IMG/VR virus record: IMGVR_UViG_3300046808_001301
Length of the DNA stretch: 64,000 nucleotides
Reading direction: 5' to 3' (one strand)
DNA from: a virus
Position 1 is the first letter of the stretch. Each line of letters begins with the position of its first letter. A program made the translations under genes and the position numbers. Below the pieces are notes generated by a model, which was given only the letters and a program-made list of their open reading frames with translations, made no database searches and had not been told where the DNA came from. Positions 8,007 to 49,905 of this stretch are shown here, piece by piece.

Positions 8007-8049
8007 AATGATTCCAAAAAAAATAACATTTTAAGATAAATATATCTAT

Positions 8050-9018
8050 ATGTCAATCGCTACAAACCTCAAAAAAAGAACCACGAGCTTAGCAGCTGCT
8101 GCTTTAACTAAAGGAAAAAATGTAACCCCTCGTATTAAAACAACCAGCTTGACGGAGCTTGAGTTAACGTTTGACGTCTCAATGTCTAGCCCAGAAAACG
8201 TAGATGATACAAATCGTTTATCAGTTTCTTTTGTTAATGGCAAAACTGGAGTAATTTATTATAAAGCTGAACCTCCAAGCACAGAGAGCGAAGCTTATAT
8301 TCCAGCAACAATGACATTGTTTGTTAATAATGAGGTGCATGCGGTTGTTGACTTTTTCTCTGACAGAATCGGTGACCCTTTTGCTCTTTCAATTTACGGC
8401 TTTACTCCACAAGAAGGTCCTCAAACAGGTACTTTTAAGCGAAACGTTTTCCAAGTTGACGGAAAGTTTACAGATGGGGATTTGTTTTTTAATATTATTG
8501 TGCCAACAGCTGTTCCGACACCGACAGCCACAATTGAACCAACATCAACTCCTCTTCCTACGCCAACACCTGAGCCAACTCCTGAGCCTGAGCCAACAGC
8601 AACTCCATGGCCGACTGAAACTCCATGGCCGACTGAAACTCCATGGCCGACTGAAACTCCGTGGCCAACCGAAGTTCCTCCAACGGAAGTTCCTCCAACA
8701 GAAGTTCCTCCAACGGAAGTTCCTCCAACAGAAGTTCCTCCAACTCCGGTTCCTCCAACTCCGGTTCCTCCAACGGAAGTTCCTCCAACGGAAGTTCCTC
8801 CAACGGAAGTTCCTCCAACAGAAGTTCCTCCAACTCCGGTTCCTCCAACGGAAGTTCCTCCAACAGAAGTTCCTCCAACGGATGTTCCGCCAACTGAAGT
8901 TCCGCCAACTGAAGTTCCGCCAACTCCAGTTCCTCCAACTGATGTTCCTCCAACTGAAGTTCCGCCAACTGAAGTTCCGCCAACTGAAGTTCCTCCAACT
9001 CCAGTTCCAGAGCCATAA
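8050..9018 (+). CDS. putative structural protein with mucin-like Pro/Thr tail
   Basis: ~150 aa globular domain followed by PTETPW and PTEVP repeats; TAAATA 7 nt upstream. Confidence 0.75.
8600..9012 (+). repeat. coding tandem repeats: 18-nt unit about x4, then 15-nt unit more than x20
   Basis: ACTCCATGGCCGACTGAA and CCAACNGAAGTTCCT units, differing mostly at synonymous positions. Confidence 0.95.
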
Positions 9019-38947: not shown

Positions 38948-40651
38948 TTAGCCAATAAAGAAAGTTGGAGGCATATTATCTTGGTAAGAATTCATCAGCT
39001 CTTGCTCAAGTGTTTCTTTTTCTTTGATTCCTTCAGCCAGCAATGTTTGACTGTTAACTTGTCCTCCGCCAAACATATTAGTTCCCGAAAACTTTTCTCT
39101 TACTCTAGCAATTGCAATCTTGCTCAAAGCAAGAGCATATTTCTGCACCCATCTTTCTTTAATTAAATCTTTAATAGGTCTTTCAATATAGCAACCAACT
39201 ATGCCTAAGAACGTATGATTTGATTGAGGTTCAGGAATAAGTCTAAGGACCTGAGATCTAGGATCAAATCTAAACTGAGATTGCATTGCTAGAACCTTGT
39301 TTCTTGTATCAATAAACCCTTTCAGGACTTCCCATGTAACTAAGTCAAACCCAAAGTTACCGATCATGTAAGAAGAGTAAATTTGCTGAGCCATTGCTTG
39401 CTCCATTGTGAACAGGGTATTAATTCCTGTATCTTCTCCTTTGGAAAACTCAAAACAATCAACGACTTTTCTCCAGCTTGCTAAATCATAATCATAACCA
39501 GCAGACAAACCTGGTGTTCTACTATTTCTCATTTCTGATGTTTTGTTAATCAAGCTATCAACTTTAATTCCTACACCAGGCAAATAAAGTTTGGAATCAA
39601 ACACCAAATATTCTTCCGTATAACCTGCCCATTTTGTAAAATACTCAATTGAGTCGGTGATATTGTCGTAAATTTGGTCGTCAGAAATTTCTAAATTAAT
39701 CAACGGCGCTCCAAGCTGTCTTTGAATGCGATTTGAAAGGTCTTCGTATGTTTCAACAGACGCATTATATGTAGTTCCTCCTCGATTCGCATAACCAGGC
39801 GGAAGTACTGGTCTCGGTGTCGGTTGAGGAGTTGGAACCGGAGTAGGAGTTGGAGGAGGTTGTGACCCCAATATAATAATACTACGAAATGTTAGAGAGT
39901 CTCCAGCGGTAACGGAAATTATTCCGTCTTGCCCTGGAAGAAATTCGCTATCCCTAATAAAGATGGCTTTGTTGTATTCTCCGGACGGAACTGTTAATTG
40001 AGCCCCCGTAGCTGCTGTAAATATACCAATTGGTTTCGCTGGATCAAAATATAAATTTAAATAAATGCTCGCTTGAGTATTGTTTGGAAGTGTGTATGCC
40101 TGAGAGTGATCATACGTTCCAGGCATAATAATGTAACTAACTACTGAATTATTAAATGGCGTTGGCGTCGGAACAGGCGTAAGTGTGGGTGTTGGAGTTG
40201 AAGTCATTTCAACAGGAGTAGATGTAGGTATTACTGGAGTAGCAGTAGGAACTACAGGTGTCGAGGTTGGTTCAATAGGAGTAGCTGTAGGAACTACCGG
40301 AGTAGCAGTAGGCTCCACGGGTGTCGAAGTCGGAGTGGCAGTAGGAGGTATAAAAAGTTGAACAGTAATCGTCTGGCCATTAACAATGTAAGTACCGTCT
40401 GGAGCCAGTTCAGGAGACCACGATGTTACTTCCCAAGGATAAAAGACATCTTGAGACGACGAATAATACAATACGTCGGGTCCAGTTGCTATGTTATACA
40501 GGCCCCAAATAGTTCCATTCCAATAAATTCTTTCGTCTCCGTAAGTGTATGCTGGTCGATCATTAAGCAGACCAACGTAATCAAGAGTTCTTCCTCCAAT
40601 CCAGTTTGTAATAATTGGAGTCGTGTCAATTGGATCAGGAATTGCAGGCAT
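38948..40651 (-). CDS. gp13: neck protein (T4 gp13-like) with ~290 aa N-terminal extension containing Pro/Thr linkers
   Basis: IQRQLGAPLINLEISDDQI.D.I..SIEYF, WVQKYALAL.K, REKFSG..MFGGG, PPTFFIG. Confidence 0.88.
   Translation of the reverse strand: MPAIPDPIDTTPIITNWIGGRTLDYVGLLNDRPAYTYGDERIYWNGTIWGLYNIATGPDVLYYSSSQDVFYPWEVTSWSPELAPDGTYIVNGQTITVQLFIPPTATPTSTPVEPTATPVVPTATPIEPTSTPVVPTATPVIPTSTPVEMTSTPTPTLTPVPTPTPFNNSVVSYIIMPGTYDHSQAYTLPNNTQASIYLNLYFDPAKPIGIFTAATGAQLTVPSGEYNKAIFIRDSEFLPGQDGIISVTAGDSLTFRSIIILGSQPPPTPTPVPTPQPTPRPVLPPGYANRGGTTYNASVETYEDLSNRIQRQLGAPLINLEISDDQIYDNITDSIEYFTKWAGYTEEYLVFDSKLYLPGVGIKVDSLINKTSEMRNSRTPGLSAGYDYDLASWRKVVDCFEFSKGEDTGINTLFTMEQAMAQQIYSSYMIGNFGFDLVTWEVLKGFIDTRNKVLAMQSQFRFDPRSQVLRLIPEPQSNHTFLGIVGCYIERPIKDLIKERWVQKYALALSKIAIARVREKFSGTNMFGGGQVNSQTLLAEGIKEKETLEQELMNSYQDNMPPTFFIG
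40155..40350 (-). repeat. Pro/Thr coding repeat (PTATPVV / PTSTPVE, 21-nt units)
   Basis: Visible in the gp13 translation. Confidence 0.8.
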
Positions 40652-40675
40652 ATTACTATTTAATGAAAGTTAGTG

Positions 40676-42553
40676 TTACGCTGCCTCAATAGGAGCGGGA
40701 GCAGTTGGTGCTGCTGGAGCTCCAGTTGTTTCCGGAGCTGCTTCTGGTCCTCCTGCAGCTTCTTCTCCTGTTGGAGGTGGCATGGCCGATCCGCCTTCTC
40801 CAAAATCTGGTATAGCTCCTCCGCCACCGCCACCACCGCCTCCGCCAGCTTCTCCTCCACCTTCGGGAGCAGCTCCTCCAGCGGCTTGTTGCAATGCCAG
40901 CTGTTCTCTAAAGTTCGGGCCCATTTCCGTAATTCGTGCAATTTCCCAAGCTAGAGCAGCGTCTTTTCTGAGCCATTCTCTGTTTTCCATCATTTCGTTT
41001 GCTGACATGTCCAAATAATACTTTTGAGCATAGGACTTTGAAATTGCTTCTGACTGAGTTGCTGTATTATAATTTTCAAACTTCATTGACAGCAATTGCT
41101 GATTGCGCATTGCCATAAATGAAGTAGGTTCGTTAAATTTTAAATTAAGGTTTTGTTCTCTAAGTCTATATTCTTTCCAGAGACCCTTTAATTTCAAATG
41201 AGTAATAAACGATTCTTTTATACCAACCGCAAAACGAGATTGGAGCCTGATAATAAATCTAGCAAACCTTAGCTCATCTCGAGTAATCTCAGCTCCATCT
41301 TTAAATGGATCTCCAGCTGTCAAGAACCTTGAAATCGGAACCTTTAAGCTCTTATATAACTTTGTTAAAAAGTAATCCAAGTCTTTGATTTCTCCCAAGT
41401 TGCCTCCAGAAGGAAGAGTAGTTACATCAGTTCCTTTACCTTGAGCATCAACAGGAAACCAATAAGCATCCAACATGGATTGAGGATCATATACATTAGC
41501 TGTTCTTCCTTCTGCACTATTGAAAGTCTTTTTAGACCAATATTTCATCATGAGTCCTTTAATATATGACTCAGCTTTTGGAGGAGGCATGTTGCCTGTA
41601 TATACTTTAAAAACAAGTCTTTCAGGAGCTCTCACTAAACGATAAATTACCACAGAATCTTCAATCAACGAAAGCTGTCTATAAGCTCTCTTTGCGTTTT
41701 CAACAAACGGCAATCTAAATGTTTTAAATTCATTCCATAACCCAGAATGAATGTATGAAACCTGAGCTTTTTGCAAGAACAAAAGCTGTTGTTGATCTTC
41801 TGTGTTTAAAGAAGTTGTTGGTCCAATTATGGGCTTCTGTAAAAGATATCCTTTCAGCAATTCATTTTGTACATTATGGAAAACTGGATTAATCAGTTCA
41901 GACGGAATCGACATTAAGCCAATAACTCCTAAATCTTCTTTGCCTTCTTTTATTAAATTTTCAAAAAAAAGTTCTCCATCAACTAACAACTGACGAAATT
42001 TTTCCCATCCTGTGTGTCCCAAATCAAATATATTGATAAACTTTTTAAATTCTTTTTGTAATTCGTCTTGAATTGTTTTACTATACTCTCCGTTAACTAA
42101 TTCAAACTTAATAATTTCTCCGTCTTCGTCCGTAACGATACACTCGTCACAAATTTCATCCAAACAATCAGCAAGTTCGGCATATGCTGCCATTCTTCTG
42201 TAATCAGTTAAGCGCCTTGGTTTATCTTTATCAATGTTAGCGTATACAAATGCTTGATAATCTTTATTGATGGAAAACGAAGCAGGAGAGCTTGAACCAT
42301 ACTGATCAGCGTTTGGCGGCTGAGACAAAAATACGGATTGGTCCTGCAACATTTCATCTCGTAACGAAGTTTGTTGTTTGAAATCATCAAACTTCGGATT
42401 GTTTTTAACCATCGCGTCAATGATTTGATATGCATATGGTAACCTAGAAACAAACGCTCCTAACAAAGACGTCTGTGGATAAGGTTGAGGCTTAACAGAA
42501 CCTGTAGAGTTTCCAGGGACTCCAGCGTTGTTCGTATATGGACGATAAATCAT
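40676..42553 (-). CDS. gp20: portal protein (T4 gp20-like)
   Basis: YRRMA, QLSLIEDSVVIYRLVRAPERLVF, GNMPPPKAE, TLPSGGNLGEI.D, EITRDELRF. Confidence 0.97.
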   Translation of the reverse strand: MIYRPYTNNAGVPGNSTGSVKPQPYPQTSLLGAFVSRLPYAYQIIDAMVKNNPKFDDFKQQTSLRDEMLQDQSVFLSQPPNADQYGSSSPASFSINKDYQAFVYANIDKDKPRRLTDYRRMAAYAELADCLDEICDECIVTDEDGEIIKFELVNGEYSKTIQDELQKEFKKFINIFDLGHTGWEKFRQLLVDGELFFENLIKEGKEDLGVIGLMSIPSELINPVFHNVQNELLKGYLLQKPIIGPTTSLNTEDQQQLLFLQKAQVSYIHSGLWNEFKTFRLPFVENAKRAYRQLSLIEDSVVIYRLVRAPERLVFKVYTGNMPPPKAESYIKGLMMKYWSKKTFNSAEGRTANVYDPQSMLDAYWFPVDAQGKGTDVTTLPSGGNLGEIKDLDYFLTKLYKSLKVPISRFLTAGDPFKDGAEITRDELRFARFIIRLQSRFAVGIKESFITHLKLKGLWKEYRLREQNLNLKFNEPTSFMAMRNQQLLSMKFENYNTATQSEAISKSYAQKYYLDMSANEMMENREWLRKDAALAWEIARITEMGPNFREQLALQQAAGGAAPEGGGEAGGGGGGGGGGAIPDFGEGGSAMPPPTGEEAAGGPEAAPETTGAPAAPTAPAPIEAA

Positions 42554-43918: not shown

Positions 43919-44185
43919 GTGAATCATCCTAACATTTATCACGTAAAGCCAGAACAAGTCGGAAGTGAAGATCTCGGAGACTTTCTTCGAAAAGCAATCA
44001 ACAGACAATTTGAAGGAAGAGATTTTTATATTTCAAAAGAATTAATTGAAGAAAAACCTACTCATTACTCAACTACTCCTAGAAAACTTAGAGGGTTTTT
44101 GATTAGCGAAGGAAACAATGAAGGACACGCAATTTGGTTTGACGTGACTGAAATTAAAGACGGAATAAACTGGATGGGCCGCTAA
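43919..44185 (+). CDS. hypothetical protein
   Basis: 88 aa ORF with GTG start. Confidence 0.65.
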   Translation: MNHPNIYHVKPEQVGSEDLGDFLRKAINRQFEGRDFYISKELIEEKPTHYSTTPRKLRGFLISEGNNEGHAIWFDVTEIKDGINWMGR

Positions 44186-44189
44186 TATC

Positions 44190-45428
44190 ATGTCTACTAT
44201 TTTTATCCAAATTGCCTCATATAGAGATCCTCAGCTCATACCAACACTAGATGATTGTATCGCTCAAGCTAAACACCCAGAAAATCTTCGTTTTTGCATT
44301 GCTTGGCAGCACGGTCCCGAAGAAAACGTCGACAAGTATAAAGAGGATTCAAGATTTAATTTTCTAGACATTCCTTATGAGGAGTCAAAAGGAGCTTGTT
44401 GGGCAAGAAACAAAATACAACAAGAATACAAAGGAGAGACATATACTCTCCAATTGGATAGCCATCATCGGTTCATTAAAAACTGGGACGAAGAGCTTAT
44501 TAATATGCTAGAGGGACTGAAAGCAAAAGGACACAAAAAGCCTTTGCTAACTAGCTATGTTTCTAGCTTTAATCCAGAAAACGACCCAGAGGGCCGTCAA
44601 CAAACTACTTGGAGGATGAATTTTGATCGTTTTACTCCCGAGGGAGTAATATTTTTTCTTCCTGCTCATTTTCCGGCCGACAAAACATTCACCGAACCTG
44701 TTCTAGCTCGTTTTTATTCAGCTCATTTTTGTTTTGCTGACGGCTGTTTTGCAAAAGAAGTTCAGCATGATCCTGAGTATTATTTTCACGGAGAAGAAAT
44801 ATCAATTGCAGTAAGAGCGTTTACACACGGTTATGATTTATTTCATCCTCACAAAACGATTGTTTGGCATGAATACACAAGAAAGGGCAGAACAAAACAT
44901 TGGGACGATGATAAAGAATGGTGGAAAAAGAACTCAAGCTGTCATTTGCGCAATAAAAAACTTTTCGAAATGGATGGAGAAAAAAGAGATATTGATTTCG
45001 GAACCTATGGATTTGGTCAAGTACGTACTTTAGAAGATTACGAAAAATATGCTGGAATTTGTTTTAAAAAGCGAGCTATTCAGAAGCACACTTTAGAGCA
45101 TAATTTTCCCCCAAACCCTCAATATGCCACTCCAGAAGAATATGATGATTCGTTTTTATCCGTTTTCAAACATTGCGTAGATGTTCATAAATCAGAGGTA
45201 AAGGAAACAGACTATGATTTTTGGGCACTAGCTTTTCATGATGAATTAGACAACACTCTGTATAGGAAAGATGTGGATGAAGCAGAAATTAAGTCTAGTA
45301 CCAATGATAAAGACGAGTATCATAGAATTTGGAGAGATTTTCAGACTGAGAAACAACCAAAGTATGTTGTTGTTTGGCCTCACTCAAAATCCAAAGGTTG
45401 GTGCGACAGAATCAAAAAAAATCTCTAA
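44190..45428 (+). CDS. GT60-like polypeptide alpha-GlcNAc transferase
   Basis: TIFIQIASYRDP, GACWAR, LQLDSHHRF..NWD, FHGEE...RAFTHGYD, WHEY signature. Confidence 0.85.
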   Translation: MSTIFIQIASYRDPQLIPTLDDCIAQAKHPENLRFCIAWQHGPEENVDKYKEDSRFNFLDIPYEESKGACWARNKIQQEYKGETYTLQLDSHHRFIKNWDEELINMLEGLKAKGHKKPLLTSYVSSFNPENDPEGRQQTTWRMNFDRFTPEGVIFFLPAHFPADKTFTEPVLARFYSAHFCFADGCFAKEVQHDPEYYFHGEEISIAVRAFTHGYDLFHPHKTIVWHEYTRKGRTKHWDDDKEWWKKNSSCHLRNKKLFEMDGEKRDIDFGTYGFGQVRTLEDYEKYAGICFKKRAIQKHTLEHNFPPNPQYATPEEYDDSFLSVFKHCVDVHKSEVKETDYDFWALAFHDELDNTLYRKDVDEAEIKSSTNDKDEYHRIWRDFQTEKQPKYVVVWPHSKSKGWCDRIKKNL

Positions 45429-45440
45429 GTACAAGCAAAG

Positions 45441-46172
45441 ATGAGATCTGCTTTAGTGTGCATTGCCAAAAACGAAGACAACTACATTCAAGAGTGGGTC
45501 GATTACAATTTAAAATTAGGATTTGATACAATTTTTATTTACGAAAATTTTTGGAAGTGTCCGATCAATCATCCTCAGGTCGTTAACATTCCTCATGATG
45601 ACGCTTCAAACAGCAAACAACCAAACGCATATGCGTTGTTTAAAAACGAGCATGGAGACAAATATGATTTTGCTGCATTTTTTGATGTAGACGAATTTTT
45701 GGTATTAAAACAACACCAATGCGTTAACGATTTTTTAGCTGAGAGAGTTGAGTATCCAGCAATAGCAGTCAATTGGGCATCATATGGAGATAGTGGGCTT
45801 ACTGAAGTCATAGACAACAATTACAGCTTATTAAAGCGCTTTACAAAACGTAAAATATTTCATGCTGGGATAAAAACAATTTTAAATTTAAAACTATCAA
45901 ATTGGGCCATTCAATCTGTTCATTGTGCTTTTTGTGTTAACATGGTCTGTCCTGCTGGATTTTCTATACCTCCTAACTCGTCGTCAAATCCTAACGGAAA
46001 TTACGACATAGCTCAATTGAATCACTATTCTGTTAAAACACTACAAGAATTCAGACGAAAACAATCTTATGGGTTGAGAGCTTGTAATAATCCTTTGCAC
46101 GACCATGACTTTCGTTGTAATAATTTTAATGAAGTAGAAGATAAATGTGCACTTGAGTTTTTTGAAAAATAA
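45441..46172 (+). CDS. GT92/GT2-like glycosyltransferase
   Basis: AKNE..YI.EW..Y...LGFD, FFDVDEF, LNHY motifs. Confidence 0.8.
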   Translation: MRSALVCIAKNEDNYIQEWVDYNLKLGFDTIFIYENFWKCPINHPQVVNIPHDDASNSKQPNAYALFKNEHGDKYDFAAFFDVDEFLVLKQHQCVNDFLAERVEYPAIAVNWASYGDSGLTEVIDNNYSLLKRFTKRKIFHAGIKTILNLKLSNWAIQSVHCAFCVNMVCPAGFSIPPNSSSNPNGNYDIAQLNHYSVKTLQEFRRKQSYGLRACNNPLHDHDFRCNNFNEVEDKCALEFFEK

Positions 46173-46188
46173 ATATTAATTCATATAT

Positions 46189-47016
46189 ATGAAGGACTTC
46201 GCATTACTAGGTGTTTGCAATAACATCACAAACAATATACAAAAAATTAAACTATGGTCGCAAAGTTTTAAACAACATTGTGATTCAGAAGTTTATTTGG
46301 TTTGTGTTAACTCAACCAAAGAAGAGCTTGGTCTTGTCAGCCAATTAAAAATTAAAGCAATTCCTGGGGAAGAAGCGGATTGTTGGAGCTTGTATCACAA
46401 AAGACTGAGACATACACTAGAAGTATTAAAAACTCTCAATGAGAAGTTTGTTTTAGTTACTGATGTATTTGACGTTTTGTTTCAGAACAATCCGTTTACA
46501 AAATTAAATTTTGAACAACATGATGTGTTCGTTGGACAAGAAGGAGGCGTGCTAGTTCATGAAGAGCCATGGAACAGAACTAATATTGGTAAGTTGTATC
46601 CAGATGAAATGGAAAAATGTTGGTCTATACCGGTCATTTGCTCAGGCGTCATTGCTGGTAAAACAAAATCTTTGATTGCTTTATATGATGAGTTGTTTCA
46701 ATTGTGCGAAGCTAGCACAAAAACAGATAATATTATTGACCAAGCAGCATTGCACGTAATGGTTGCCAATAATAGAATACCAGGGTTAAAACAACTCAAT
46801 TTAAATGATGGTTGGGTTGTACATTGCGCAGTTGCTGGTCCGACTCAATTTTTTGAACAATGGGGATTCAAATACTGCATTACAACGAGAGGCCTTAGTG
46901 TGCCAAAATTAGAAAATAATGCCGTTGTAAAAGACAATGGTGAAGTGTATGATATCGTCCATCAATTTAACCGCATTCCCGAATGGAATGCTGCTTTAGT
47001 ATCTAAATATGAATAA
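46189..47016 (+). CDS. GT-A fold glycosyltransferase
   Basis: VTDVFDVLFQNNPF, ICSGVIAG, DQAAL, HQFNR. Confidence 0.7.
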   Translation: MKDFALLGVCNNITNNIQKIKLWSQSFKQHCDSEVYLVCVNSTKEELGLVSQLKIKAIPGEEADCWSLYHKRLRHTLEVLKTLNEKFVLVTDVFDVLFQNNPFTKLNFEQHDVFVGQEGGVLVHEEPWNRTNIGKLYPDEMEKCWSIPVICSGVIAGKTKSLIALYDELFQLCEASTKTDNIIDQAALHVMVANNRIPGLKQLNLNDGWVVHCAVAGPTQFFEQWGFKYCITTRGLSVPKLENNAVVKDNGEVYDIVHQFNRIPEWNAALVSKYE

Positions 47017-47794
47017 TACAGCTGTAGTGTTTTGTACGTATCCTCGCTCTCTTAGTGGAGGATTTCATGAAAATTTTGTAAAATACAAAAATGAAAATTT
47101 TGAAAATTTTTTTGTTGTTTTTGACGATCAACAAAAAGAATTCGACCCAATGTATGTTAAAGAGGTCTACAAAAAAACACCAATTTTTGCTTACAACCTC
47201 AAAGACTTCAACAAATATCAGTTTGATCGACCTATAGATAAAAAGCATCGTTGGGGGTCACATCAAAATCCAAATTACTTTTATGCTCATTTCAGAATGT
47301 TGCTTTTCTTCAGGAAGTACAGCCAATTTGATTATTATTGGTTTTTTGATGATGATGTTTATTTTGACACGAATCTTAAATCATTTTTAACTGAATATGA
47401 GACCCACAAAGAGGACTTTTTAGCAATTCAGGTTTTCAAAAAAGAAGATTACGAAGAGTTTCCGTTTATAAGCAAAGCAAATGATCGAATGGGGTCACAT
47501 GGACATTGGTTAGGGTTTGCACCTGGACCAGGAGATGCATACAAATCAACAGCAAAACATATGGGATGTTTTTATCCAATTGTTAGATATTCTAACAAAG
47601 CTATGAAACACCTATTGCAACTAAACGAACAAGGTTTTTATGGATACTCTGAAGGGTTCGTTCCGACTTCGTTAGCTAGCGATGGATTTTCTGTAGCTAG
47701 CATGCTTAATGAGCATGATGAATTCTTCATTAAGCCTAAAACTCAATGCAAACTTACTCACAAAAACGATAACTTTACCTGGACATGGATATAA
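47009..47794 (+). CDS. putative glycosyltransferase (DUF3405-like)
   Basis: FDYYWFFDDDVYF, IVRYS..A, SEGFVPT. Confidence 0.6.
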   Translation: MNNTAVVFCTYPRSLSGGFHENFVKYKNENFENFFVVFDDQQKEFDPMYVKEVYKKTPIFAYNLKDFNKYQFDRPIDKKHRWGSHQNPNYFYAHFRMLLFFRKYSQFDYYWFFDDDVYFDTNLKSFLTEYETHKEDFLAIQVFKKEDYEEFPFISKANDRMGSHGHWLGFAPGPGDAYKSTAKHMGCFYPIVRYSNKAMKHLLQLNEQGFYGYSEGFVPTSLASDGFSVASMLNEHDEFFIKPKTQCKLTHKNDNFTWTWI

Positions 47795-48861
47795 CATTCT
47801 GCACATTCTTTTTTGATATAAACCGATCCAATTGGAATAACTTTGCTATTCACAGTAACACGTATATGCATTGGTTTAAAAACGTGTTAAGTTTGGATAT
47901 TAATTTACACATTCAAACTGAAGAAAAGTTTTTAGACGTAATCCGAGAAGAAAGAAAAAAAGTCGATCCGGAGTTTAAAAAGACAATTATTAAAATAACC
48001 AAAGTCGAACATCTAGAAGCCTGGAAACGCTATAATGCTTCTCTTGAAGATTTAATGTTTTCAGATGAGTTTAAGCAGAAAATTCGTCACGATGTTCCTG
48101 AAATGACAAAGCCTTTGTACAACGTTTTGATGTTTAACAAAGTCCATTATCTTAAGGAAATTATAAAAACAAATCCTTTCAATACAAAATTTTTTAGTTG
48201 GGTTGATACTGGTTTTGTTAGAGATAGCTCTTGGCCTATCGACAACGAACAATGGCCGGATCCTGAAAAACTAATTCTGCAACCAAACAAAGTAAAGTTC
48301 TTTTGTATAAATGACAACGTCGTCGATGGAATAGCTAATACCACAAAAGAAGAACATTGTATGTCTCAGATGAGATTTTTGAAAGGAACTATTTTCTTTT
48401 TAGATGGAGCATGTATAGACGAGCTTTGCGATCTTTTTGACAAAAACGTTAAACGATGCATTGCAGACAAATTTATTGGATCAGACGAAAAAATTTTTGA
48501 TTTATGCTACTGTGATAATCCAGATTTGTTTGAATTAACGAAATGCGATTGGAGAGAAGAATTTCATTTGTACGCAAAAAATAACAGAAAACAATACAAC
48601 ATTACTTTTTCTTGGAATGTAGAAGAAATTACAAAAGCTCAGGAGTATCGTTTTTGGTACGTAGGAATAGAAGATTCTACTGAAGCTGTTATTCATCGTT
48701 GTGATTTTAATCCCCATGATCACGAAGAAATATGCAATTTAACGACAACGAACTACACGGTTAATTTTGCTTCTGCAACAAAGCCACGTAGGGTTGTTAT
48801 ATGGCCTGTCGATAACGATGGCAATTGGCTGCAGAGAATCGAGTATCCAATAAATTTGTAA
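47785..48861 (+). CDS. HtrL/WlaTC-like glycosyltransferase with extra C-terminal domain
   Basis: TFFFDINR..W, PE....Y..LMFNK, NPFNT..F.WVDTG. Confidence 0.75.
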   Translation: MDITFCTFFFDINRSNWNNFAIHSNTYMHWFKNVLSLDINLHIQTEEKFLDVIREERKKVDPEFKKTIIKITKVEHLEAWKRYNASLEDLMFSDEFKQKIRHDVPEMTKPLYNVLMFNKVHYLKEIIKTNPFNTKFFSWVDTGFVRDSSWPIDNEQWPDPEKLILQPNKVKFFCINDNVVDGIANTTKEEHCMSQMRFLKGTIFFLDGACIDELCDLFDKNVKRCIADKFIGSDEKIFDLCYCDNPDLFELTKCDWREEFHLYAKNNRKQYNITFSWNVEEITKAQEYRFWYVGIEDSTEAVIHRCDFNPHDHEEICNLTTTNYTVNFASATKPRRVVIWPVDNDGNWLQRIEYPINL

Positions 48862-48888
48862 TAGTTCTTATAGATAAGTATAGAAGAT

Positions 48889-49905
48889 ATGTTTTTTATA
48901 CTTTTACTCGGAATGAGCGCCTTCATGGTTGCTGGTTCAGCTGCTTATTTTTCTGTATTAGGCATTGCAACATTATTCTCTGGAAGTTACTACCAAGTTT
49001 TAGTAATGGCTGGGTCATTGGAGTTCGGTAAACTTGTGGCCACCTCTTACTTGTATAGATATTGGAATAAGACCGTTTGGTGGCTCAAAATGTACTTGAT
49101 TCTCGCAGTAATAACATTAATGGGAATTACTTCATTGGGAATTTTTGGGTATCTTTCTGCTGCATACCAAGTTAATTCTTCCAAAGCCTCTCAAGTTGAC
49201 CAACAAAGTGCTATGATTCAATCTCAGAAGGATACAATGACTTCTGAGATTGAACAAAATACAAAAAGAATAGAGACGCTTAATCAATTAAGAGCAACCC
49301 AAGAGGAAAGAGTTCAAACAGCAGGAAACTACAAGGCTCCAAGAGAACAAGCTTATGCTGCAATAGACAAAGCAAATCAAGAAATTCAAAAGCTTACTGA
49401 AAGAAATCAATTATTACAAGCTGAAAAATTTAAAAAAGATACAGAGCTAGCTGAAGTTTCTCAGCAGATGGCACACGCCAAAGACATTGGCACGTTTAAA
49501 TTTGTTGCTCAAACAATTAAGAAACCTTTAGATACTGTAGTTATACTTTTCATATGTGTTCTTATTTGTGTGTTTGATCCTTTAGCTGTTGCTCTTATAT
49601 TGGCATTCAATGTTGCAACAAAAGGAAGCGTTTTAAAAGAAGAATTTCCAGAACCAACTTCTACTCCCGAACCAACTTCTACTCCTGAACCAACTTCTAC
49701 TCCAGAACCAACTCTGGATCCAACTTCTACTCCTGAACCAACTTCTACTCCTGAACCAACTTCTACTCCAGAACCAACACTGATTGTAGAGGTAGAGGAA
49801 CAGCAAACAGAAGACCCATATACATTATCTCTAGCAGATAAGTCTAAGACCACGATTGTATCAGGAAAAATTAAAGCTACAGGTAGACTCAAACCAAAAA
49901 GCTAG
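48889..49905 (+). CDS. membrane protein with coiled coil and PTSTPE repeats
   Basis: AYFSV.G...LF.G, LEFGKL, TSLGIFGYLS, VFDPLAV motifs; TAAGTA 8 nt upstream. Confidence 0.75.
   Translation: MFFILLLGMSAFMVAGSAAYFSVLGIATLFSGSYYQVLVMAGSLEFGKLVATSYLYRYWNKTVWWLKMYLILAVITLMGITSLGIFGYLSAAYQVNSSKASQVDQQSAMIQSQKDTMTSEIEQNTKRIETLNQLRATQEERVQTAGNYKAPREQAYAAIDKANQEIQKLTERNQLLQAEKFKKDTELAEVSQQMAHAKDIGTFKFVAQTIKKPLDTVVILFICVLICVFDPLAVALILAFNVATKGSVLKEEFPEPTSTPEPTSTPEPTSTPEPTLDPTSTPEPTSTPEPTSTPEPTLIVEVEEQQTEDPYTLSLADKSKTTIVSGKIKATGRLKPKS
49648..49779 (+). repeat. 18-nt coding tandem repeat about x7 (EPTSTP)
   Basis: GAACCAACTTCTACTCCN units. Confidence 0.92.

Follow-up and report, generated by a model that had tools for sequence, protein, structure and literature searches.

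A shared C-terminal beta-sandwich tail on GT60-like and HtrL-like glycosyltransferases of a T4-type phage

In a 64,000-nucleotide (nt) stretch of viral DNA (IMG/VR record IMGVR_UViG_3300046808_001301; its whole length is here called the window), five glycosyltransferase-like genes form a tightly packed + strand operon between the portal and fibre-like genes, and the first and last of the encoded enzymes, which belong to different families, end in the same domain of 88 amino acids (aa), here called the tail. The window is DNA of a T4-type phage, coding for a portal protein (phrog_213, E 7e-105), a head-tail adaptor, and a major head protein (phrog_138, E 4e-87) with ~34% identity to cyanomyovirus gp23; a megablast search with positions 44000-49000 against isolated phages returned no matches at the DNA level. 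As judged from the translations, the operon enzymes have neither a signal peptide nor a membrane segment. The genes and features are:

44190..45428, + strand: GT60-like glycosyltransferase, 412 aa, first gene of the operon (PF11397 GlcNAc, E 5.6e-75, best stretch aa 54-292)
45066..45161, + strand: linker between the GT60 catalytic domain and the tail, aa 293-324 (from the end of the Pfam envelope at aa 292 to the start of the match to the tail hidden Markov model, HMM, at aa 325)
45162..45425, + strand: tail copy 1, aa 325-412, predicted 88-aa beta-sandwich of the fibronectin type III (FN3)/immunoglobulin (Ig)-like kind (HMM envelope; AlphaFold2 model)
45441..46172, + strand: GT2_4 / GT92-like glycosyltransferase without a tail (PF13704, E 4e-11; PF01697, E 2e-6)
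46189..47016, + strand: putative nucleotide-sugar transferase without a tail (weak match to PF03407, E 0.004, below cutoff)
47009..47794, + strand: putative galactosyltransferase-like protein without a tail (weak match to PF01762, E 9e-4, below cutoff); the gene overlaps its neighbours on both sides
47785..48861, + strand: HtrL/YibB-like glycosyltransferase, 358 aa, last enzyme of the operon (PF09612, E 5e-26, aa 2-264)
48592..48858, + strand: tail copy 2, aa 270-358, homologous 88-aa predicted beta-sandwich (BLASTP E 1e-8 to copy 1; hhalign probability 99%)
48889..49905, + strand: membrane/coiled-coil protein with (TSTPEP)-type Thr/Pro repeats at its end (translation; Pro/Thr/Ser window scan)

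The first-pass annotation of this DNA had noticed the likeness of the two C-termini and proposed a shared domain of ~90 aa; we confirmed that the C-terminal 88 residues of the GT60-like and HtrL-like enzymes are homologous. The pairwise alignment statistics that it had asked for are significant: aligned by BLASTP, the two tails score 34.3 bits (E 1e-8) with 24% identity across 72 aa, and when the full-length proteins are compared, the C-termini are the sole significant segment (E 5e-6, with the next best at E 0.56). The HtrL tail alone also matches positions 323-408 of the 409 in a PHROG profile that was built from GT60-type phage enzymes and includes no HtrL proteins (E 1.3e-7). Tails were further gathered by reference from 60 IMG/VR loci and aligned (alignment A1), and an hhalign comparison of 19 GT60 tails with five HtrL tails gave a probability of 99% and an E value of 4.3e-18 over 72 columns. 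The HtrL tails of two loci (L006 and L054) retain the GT60-type loop W-P-x-S-[KH]-S-[KR]-G-[WY] and thereby bridge the two groups. A likeness by chance or composition, without a shared domain, is a thought that the low identity of the pair might prompt, but the pairwise and profile statistics already refute it, and the agreement of two structural models built from separate alignments and the 368 database clusters that match the tail profile (both described below) leave it with practically no likelihood.

The domains that precede the tails are assigned to different families. The GT60-like protein scores 253.4 bits against PF11397 (gathering cutoff 21) and matches phrog_24687 over its full length (E 1e-173), whereas the HtrL-like protein scores 92.2 bits against PF09612 (cutoff 24.1). 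The PF11397 model stops at aa 292 and does not cover the tail, and the TIGR02192 and NF008462 models of HtrL-like proteins both stop at about aa 267, ahead of the tail. Equivalence of the HtrL-like protein to Escherichia coli YibB was considered and rejected, with scores of 98.7 bits against TIGR02192 (cutoff 264.9) and 70.1 bits against NF008462 (cutoff 342). The full-length HtrL-like model, built solely from HtrL-type homologues (alignment A5), has a predicted local distance difference test score (pLDDT) of 91.3 and a predicted template modelling score (pTM) of 0.80, and its catalytic part is predicted to have a GT-A fold (Z 11-12 to LARGE1, Bogt6a, PBCV-1 A64R, and LgtC). GT60 is itself usually classed as GT-A, so the earlier claim that the catalytic domains are unrelated holds at the level of families, between which sequence similarity is not detectable, and not necessarily at the level of fold. 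Protist members of PF11397/GT60 are known to have polypeptide Ser/Thr (or Hyp) alpha-GlcNAc transferase activity.

AlphaFold2 with alignment A1 gave a model of the 89-residue tail (pLDDT 96.2, pTM 0.85) in which six strands and one short helix follow one another in the order E-E-E-H-E-E-E; the same order is found in aa 269-355 of the full-length HtrL model, so structure prediction and fold search, which had been suggested as a check, show the same element order for both tails in separately built models. In a structure search independent of Foldseek, FN3 domains or monobodies fill nearly all of the top ranks for the tail model, with Z scores of 7.6-6.8 and root mean square deviations (rmsd) of 2.5-3.0 A (~2.7 A) over 72-78 of the 89 residues, and rescoring of the Foldseek candidates agrees with these FN3-type top matches. 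Foldseek itself, run with the tail model against the PDB and BFVD, gave no match with an E value as low as 0.001. The model has six strands and a helix where an FN3 domain is a seven-strand Greek key, and a Pfam-A scan of both tails to E 1 found no fn3-type family (there are no matches for tail query P0003, and only Ubiquitin_3, at E 0.09, for tail query P0004). Since the Z scores are below 8 and there is no FN3 profile match, we describe the domain as FN3/Ig-like and not as a member of the FN3 family; in the models the resemblance is a fold-level sandwich arrangement and is not proof of common descent. On these predictions the tail is an autonomous small FN3/Ig-like beta-sandwich. A protein of Barrevirus sp. 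in BFVD (A0A3G4ZQN6, 64 aa) superimposes on part of the tail (template modelling score 0.76, normalised to the target; rmsd 2.8 A) with 25% identity and a Foldseek E value of 0.05, and may be a distant or fragmentary relative in Nucleocytoviricota.

A conserved signature emerges from 85 nonredundant tails (at <60% identity; tail residue 1 is aa 324 of the 412-aa protein). The three tryptophans first pointed out as conserved, W22, W73, and W81, are kept in the pair and indeed recur in most of these tails. The conserved positions are:

D18 89%, Y19 80%, F21 76%, W22 75%, D28 78%
R36 92%, D38 91%, P67 93%
W73 94%, P74 80%, S76 89%, G80 80%, W81 92%

In the model, D18 and Y19 are placed at the start of strand B, R36 and D38 at the end of strand C, and S76-W81 in the E-F loop, and the predicted up-and-down order of the hairpins should bring these three groups to one pole of the sandwich, an arrangement that would fit a binding site.

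The tail was proposed to be an unrecognised domain, and within the libraries searched it is: there is no Pfam-A or NCBIfam family for it, and its profile finds only noise among PDB chains (E 0.016 or worse). A look-up in the ESM Atlas gave no usable match, and full-text literature searches (PF11397; GT60 with phage; HtrL with phage) found no paper describing it. PHROGs includes the tail solely as the end of a whole-protein family, phrog_24687, whose profile has 409 positions. That family and the glycosyltransferases of the Xanthomonas and Stenotrophomonas jumbo phages Xoo-sp13, XacN1, RAS14, and CM1 are full-length orthologues of the GT60-like gene with the tail included (45-48% identity), but in these records the tail is neither delimited nor named, and the function is given only as 'glycosyl transferase' or 'hypothetical protein'. 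When 1.84 billion cluster representatives were searched exhaustively with the tail profile, 368 matched at E 0.001 or better, 183 of them at E 1e-10 or better, where each match is a cluster at 50% identity and many are fragments on short contigs. Among the best 150 of the 368, from which the architectures below are described, a GT60-like catalytic part is detectable in 53 and an HtrL-like part in four. The tail is a sizeable family without a name, new at the sequence level, among the beta-sandwich accessory domains of carbohydrate-active enzymes.

Tail carriers are mostly GT60-like enzymes of aquatic phages, jumbo phages, and bacterial chromosomes, and the tail marks a GT60-like lineage common to aquatic T4-like phages, jumbo phages with plant-associated and clinical bacteria as hosts, and some bacterial chromosomes. 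Among isolated phages, the GT60-tail gene is present only in the four jumbo phages named above, where it adjoins a carbamoyltransferase gene, and a tblastn search with the HtrL tail against isolated phages gave no match. In Xoo-sp13 (L001:4304-6601) and RAS14 (L002:4306-6606), a gene of ~765 aa directly follows the GT60-tail gene, annotated as 'carbamoyl transferase' in the former and as 'hypothetical protein' in the latter; it may provide a further glycan-tailoring step. The bacterial occurrences are a lower bound, since the scan of bacterial genomes used a single peptide pattern; they include a Chthoniobacter contig of 376 kb with two GT60-tail genes in tandem and a Tepidamorphus sp. 3E244 contig of 1.84 Mb with one. 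In a Chthoniobacterales metagenome-assembled genome (JBAXCT010000031.1; L065:1791-3875), the tail forms the C-terminus of a polytopic membrane protein of 694 aa that has no Pfam family and whose gene adjoins a PMT_2 (GT-C) gene; this tail is 47% identical to the phage tail, and the GC content falls from ~60-64% to ~49-52% over it, which suggests recent acquisition.

The tail had also been thought to be portable, and the survey of its fusion partners with an HMM bears this out: it follows at least three glycosyltransferase families (GT60-like, HtrL-like, and the GT-A enzyme of P0238, a DxD-type protein without a Pfam family that is found on three contigs) and stands between the catalytic domains of multienzyme fusions, as a discrete predicted fold. 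The architectures seen on more than one contig are GT60-tail, GT60-tail-GT60-tail, GT60-tail-tail, HtrL-tail, HtrL-tail-GT25, GT60-tail-HtrL-more, and DxD GT-A-tail. The HtrL-tail-GT25 fusion (P0220) occurs on contigs of up to 86 kb, and the GT60-tail-HtrL-more fusion (P0214, 1196 aa) has 17 members at 90% identity on a contig of up to 113 kb; the tandem GT60-tail-tail arrangement is found in P0144 and P0185, with P0135 adding a second GT60-like domain after the tandem. Fusions to a sulfotransferase-like (P0210), a methyltransferase-like (P0224), and an HAD-like (P0266) domain, and to an OmpR-type winged helix-turn-helix (P0247), are each known from a single contig, and fusions of the tail to partners other than glycosyltransferases are therefore tentative. 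Scans of viral contigs found no relative of P0238, and for P0224 the methyltransferase part only. A seeming NeuD/PglD-tail fusion (P0146) was discarded as a chimera or deletion scar; the 799-bp contig on which it lies encodes a truncated acetyltransferase part, and an ordinary GT60-tail gene at the locus L069 described below codes for an almost identical tail.

In a FastTree phylogeny of 60 tails, which rests on a short alignment and is weak at its deeper nodes, the HtrL tails fall into two clades with good support (0.95 and 0.94); GT60 tails and P0238 join both of them in a broader clade (0.92), and the tails of the membrane protein and the HAD protein branch within other GT60 subclades. Judged by this nesting, the tail seems to have been carried first by GT60-like enzymes and passed several times to other partners. 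It is probably native to the GT60-like (PF11397) enzymes of a branch found in bacteria and phages and appears, from these sequence comparisons, to have reached HtrL-like enzymes, and at least one further GT-A enzyme, by domain shuffling.

An animal glycosyltransferase offers the closest parallel. Like POMGNT2 (GT61; PDB 6XFI), the tail-bearing enzymes are predicted to carry a single FN3-like sandwich directly after the catalytic domain, and 6xfi is among the weak Foldseek matches to the tail (rank 6, E 0.18). Unlike POMGNT2, which is an enzyme of the endoplasmic reticulum lumen in animals, they are cytoplasmic and belong to phages and bacteria; there is no sequence relationship, and the POMGNT2 catalytic domain is GT61/GT-B, whereas the HtrL-like domain is modelled as GT-A and the other enzyme belongs to PF11397. 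The C-terminal FnIII domain of POMGNT2 is essential for activity and assembles into a domain-swapped dimer, and it binds the acceptor peptide beside a TPT site through Trp525, Trp559, and Phe572 (PMC8360118). As this one domain both dimerises and binds acceptor, docking and dimerisation need not exclude each other. The first-pass annotation had instead likened the tail to the ricin-type lectin (CBM13) of polypeptide GalNAc-transferases (GT27), and the two are alike in being noncatalytic C-terminal modules on a mucin-type O-glycosylation enzyme, putatively so for the tail. At the level of fold the comparison fails: CBM13 is a beta-trefoil of ~125 aa with three QxW repeats, the tail is predicted to be a sandwich of 88 aa without internal repeat, and there is no Ricin_B_lectin match in Pfam, so that the analogy can only be functional, at most. 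In TarS, a GT-A enzyme of wall teichoic acid synthesis, small C-terminal beta-sandwich domains resembling carbohydrate-binding modules (CBMs) mediate trimerisation; no sequence match or specific fold match between the tail and TarS turned up, although TarS was not tested as such.

We examined the genomic context of the tail at 69 loci, all of which were retrieved through the tail and are related to one another. An open reading frame (ORF) with Thr/Pro repeats lies within 400 nt of the tail-bearing gene at 16 of these loci, this window included, where the gene at 48889-49905 begins 28 nt 3' of the HtrL-tail gene. Its product has N-terminal membrane segments, a long coiled coil, a further hydrophobic segment, and the C-terminal (TSTPEP)-type repeats, in that order, and matches no curated family above cutoff (below threshold there are an HpsJ-like match and a TonB Pro-rich region). 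A LamG protein with Pro/Thr (PT) repeats is encoded upstream of the GT60-tail genes of Chthoniobacter, with one ORF between. On a 281-kb IMG/VR contig (L069:239-7871), a GT60-tail gene is paired with a gene for a tail-less HtrL-like protein of 265 aa, and large Cys-rich proteins with (TP)n linkers are encoded on either side of the pair. At all five loci where an HtrL-tail gene was seen, a GT60-tail gene was present too.

We favour, with confidence that falls a little short of even, the reading that the tail is an acceptor-docking module for the shared (glyco)protein substrate of the pathway, possibly acting in trans within a dimer. It would hold its enzyme on this acceptor, which we infer to consist of Thr/Pro-rich repeats in phage (or bacterial) proteins, or of a glycopeptide made from them, and binding would go through a conserved aromatic and charged patch made up of D-Y-x-F-W, R-x-D, and W-P-x-S-x-S-x-G-W; any work in trans would resemble that of the C-terminal FnIII domain of POMGNT2. 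In this phage, the GT60-like and HtrL-like enzymes would be addressed to one substrate, and the Thr/Pro-repeat protein encoded at 48889-49905 is a candidate for it by virtue of its repeats and position. Binding modules typically occur, as the tail does, in tandem and next to several catalytic domains. Several observations weigh against docking. Thr/Pro-repeat proteins are frequent throughout these phages; they are present at 29 of the 69 loci, which are not independent, and this is about background, while a Pro/Thr scan of the window finds three repeat ORFs (stop to stop, 8035-9015, 38951-40669, and 48874-49902). The FN3-like fold is very common and, at Z scores under 8, uninformative about a ligand; the conserved Trp, Asp, and Arg might just as well serve in the core or in salt bridges; and the fusions to enzymes other than glycosyltransferases are singletons on short contigs. 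More speculatively, and rather doubtful as it stands, the tail could be the 'address tag' of a prokaryotic and viral toolkit for mucin-type O-glycosylation, reading Thr/Pro-repeat (glyco)peptides and recruiting to the same stalks the initiating GT60-like enzyme, then shuffled glycosyltransferases, and perhaps tailoring enzymes such as sulfo- and methyltransferases.

The sandwich might instead serve as a scaffold, forming homo-oligomers or hetero-oligomers of tail-bearing enzymes and binding no ligand directly. In the polyproteins the tail stands between catalytic domains, as a structural connector would, the pTM of the two-domain HtrL model and its short linker suggest a fairly fixed position, and two of the five operon enzymes carry a tail. 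The coupling of pathway steps through heterodimers, which had been offered as a possible role, is nevertheless not general, because 59 of the 69 loci have a single tail-bearing gene within ~6 kb and bacterial chromosomes have lone GT60-tail genes; moreover, polar residues and a loop (R-x-D, S-x-S-x-G-W) are conserved most strongly, rather than a hydrophobic strand face, and tandem tails fit the avidity of ligand binding better than a defined oligomer. We regard a purely oligomerising role as somewhat unlikely. A tail that is a CBM, binding an attached sugar such as GlcNAc-O-Thr or the growing glycan and directing follow-on or neighbouring-site glycosylation, would suit a small beta-sandwich with conserved Trp/Tyr and Asp/Arg, as is typical of CBMs, and would suit the partners, all of which build or tailor glycans, and the tandem copies; the carbohydrate-binding domain of Wzt for O-antigen (8dky, Foldseek E 0.41) also shows weak fold likeness, as do Ig-like domains in GH2 glycosidases (Z 6.2-6.7). 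These fold matches mean no more than 'beta-sandwich', however, sequence searches give no match to a CBM or lectin family, and the main and probably ancestral carrier is the initiating GT60-like enzyme, which must act on unglycosylated protein, so we consider this role improbable. Least likely, and a distant outsider in our judgement, is some other target (DNA, for glycan hypermodification of bases, a membrane, or the virion) or a cap that aids the folding or stability of the GT-A domain. GT-A enzymes that glycosylate DNA do exist in phages (bioRxiv 10.1101/2023.12.21.572611), the conserved loop is basic (S-K-S-K-G-W), one singleton joins the tail to an OmpR-type winged helix, and one bacterial copy ends the membrane protein beside the PMT_2 enzyme; yet the DNA-modifying GT-A enzymes of that study are JGT-like and linked to 5mYOX/ThyS, with GT60 and HtrL unmentioned, chromosomal copies in bacteria argue against a virion-specific role, and the winged-helix fusion is a single protein on a short contig.

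Where glycosyltransferases act is set by noncatalytic modules, of which few are known in the protein glycosylation of bacteria and viruses. A tail that reads Thr/Pro-repeat acceptors would account for the way in which soluble phage enzymes select the PT stalks of virion proteins, and its HMM would be a simple marker for protein-glycosylation systems in phages and bacteria; if it only oligomerises, it would be a routine addition to the domain databases.

Within the window, a six-frame scan with the tail HMM found just the two copies, and the three glycosyltransferase genes between the carriers have no match to it. The linker at 45066-45161 has a PPNP-type motif that recurs in homologues, and PPNP-like strings start many of the fragmentary homologues; this recurrence suggests that the linker is more than a flexible spacer. 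In related phages, HtrL-like domains are also fused to modules other than the tail (HtrL-FkbM methyltransferase, GT25-HtrL-FkbM, and HtrL-GT2-like; L044:3538-4932, L046:3514-4935, L036:7862-10027, and L048:8543-10234), and the glycan cassette adjoining the GT60-tail gene is highly modular. The portal protein of the window (40676-42553, - strand) has a long C-terminal extension, Gly-rich and then Pro/Ala/Thr-rich, that lies outside its profile match (aa 77-532 of 625).

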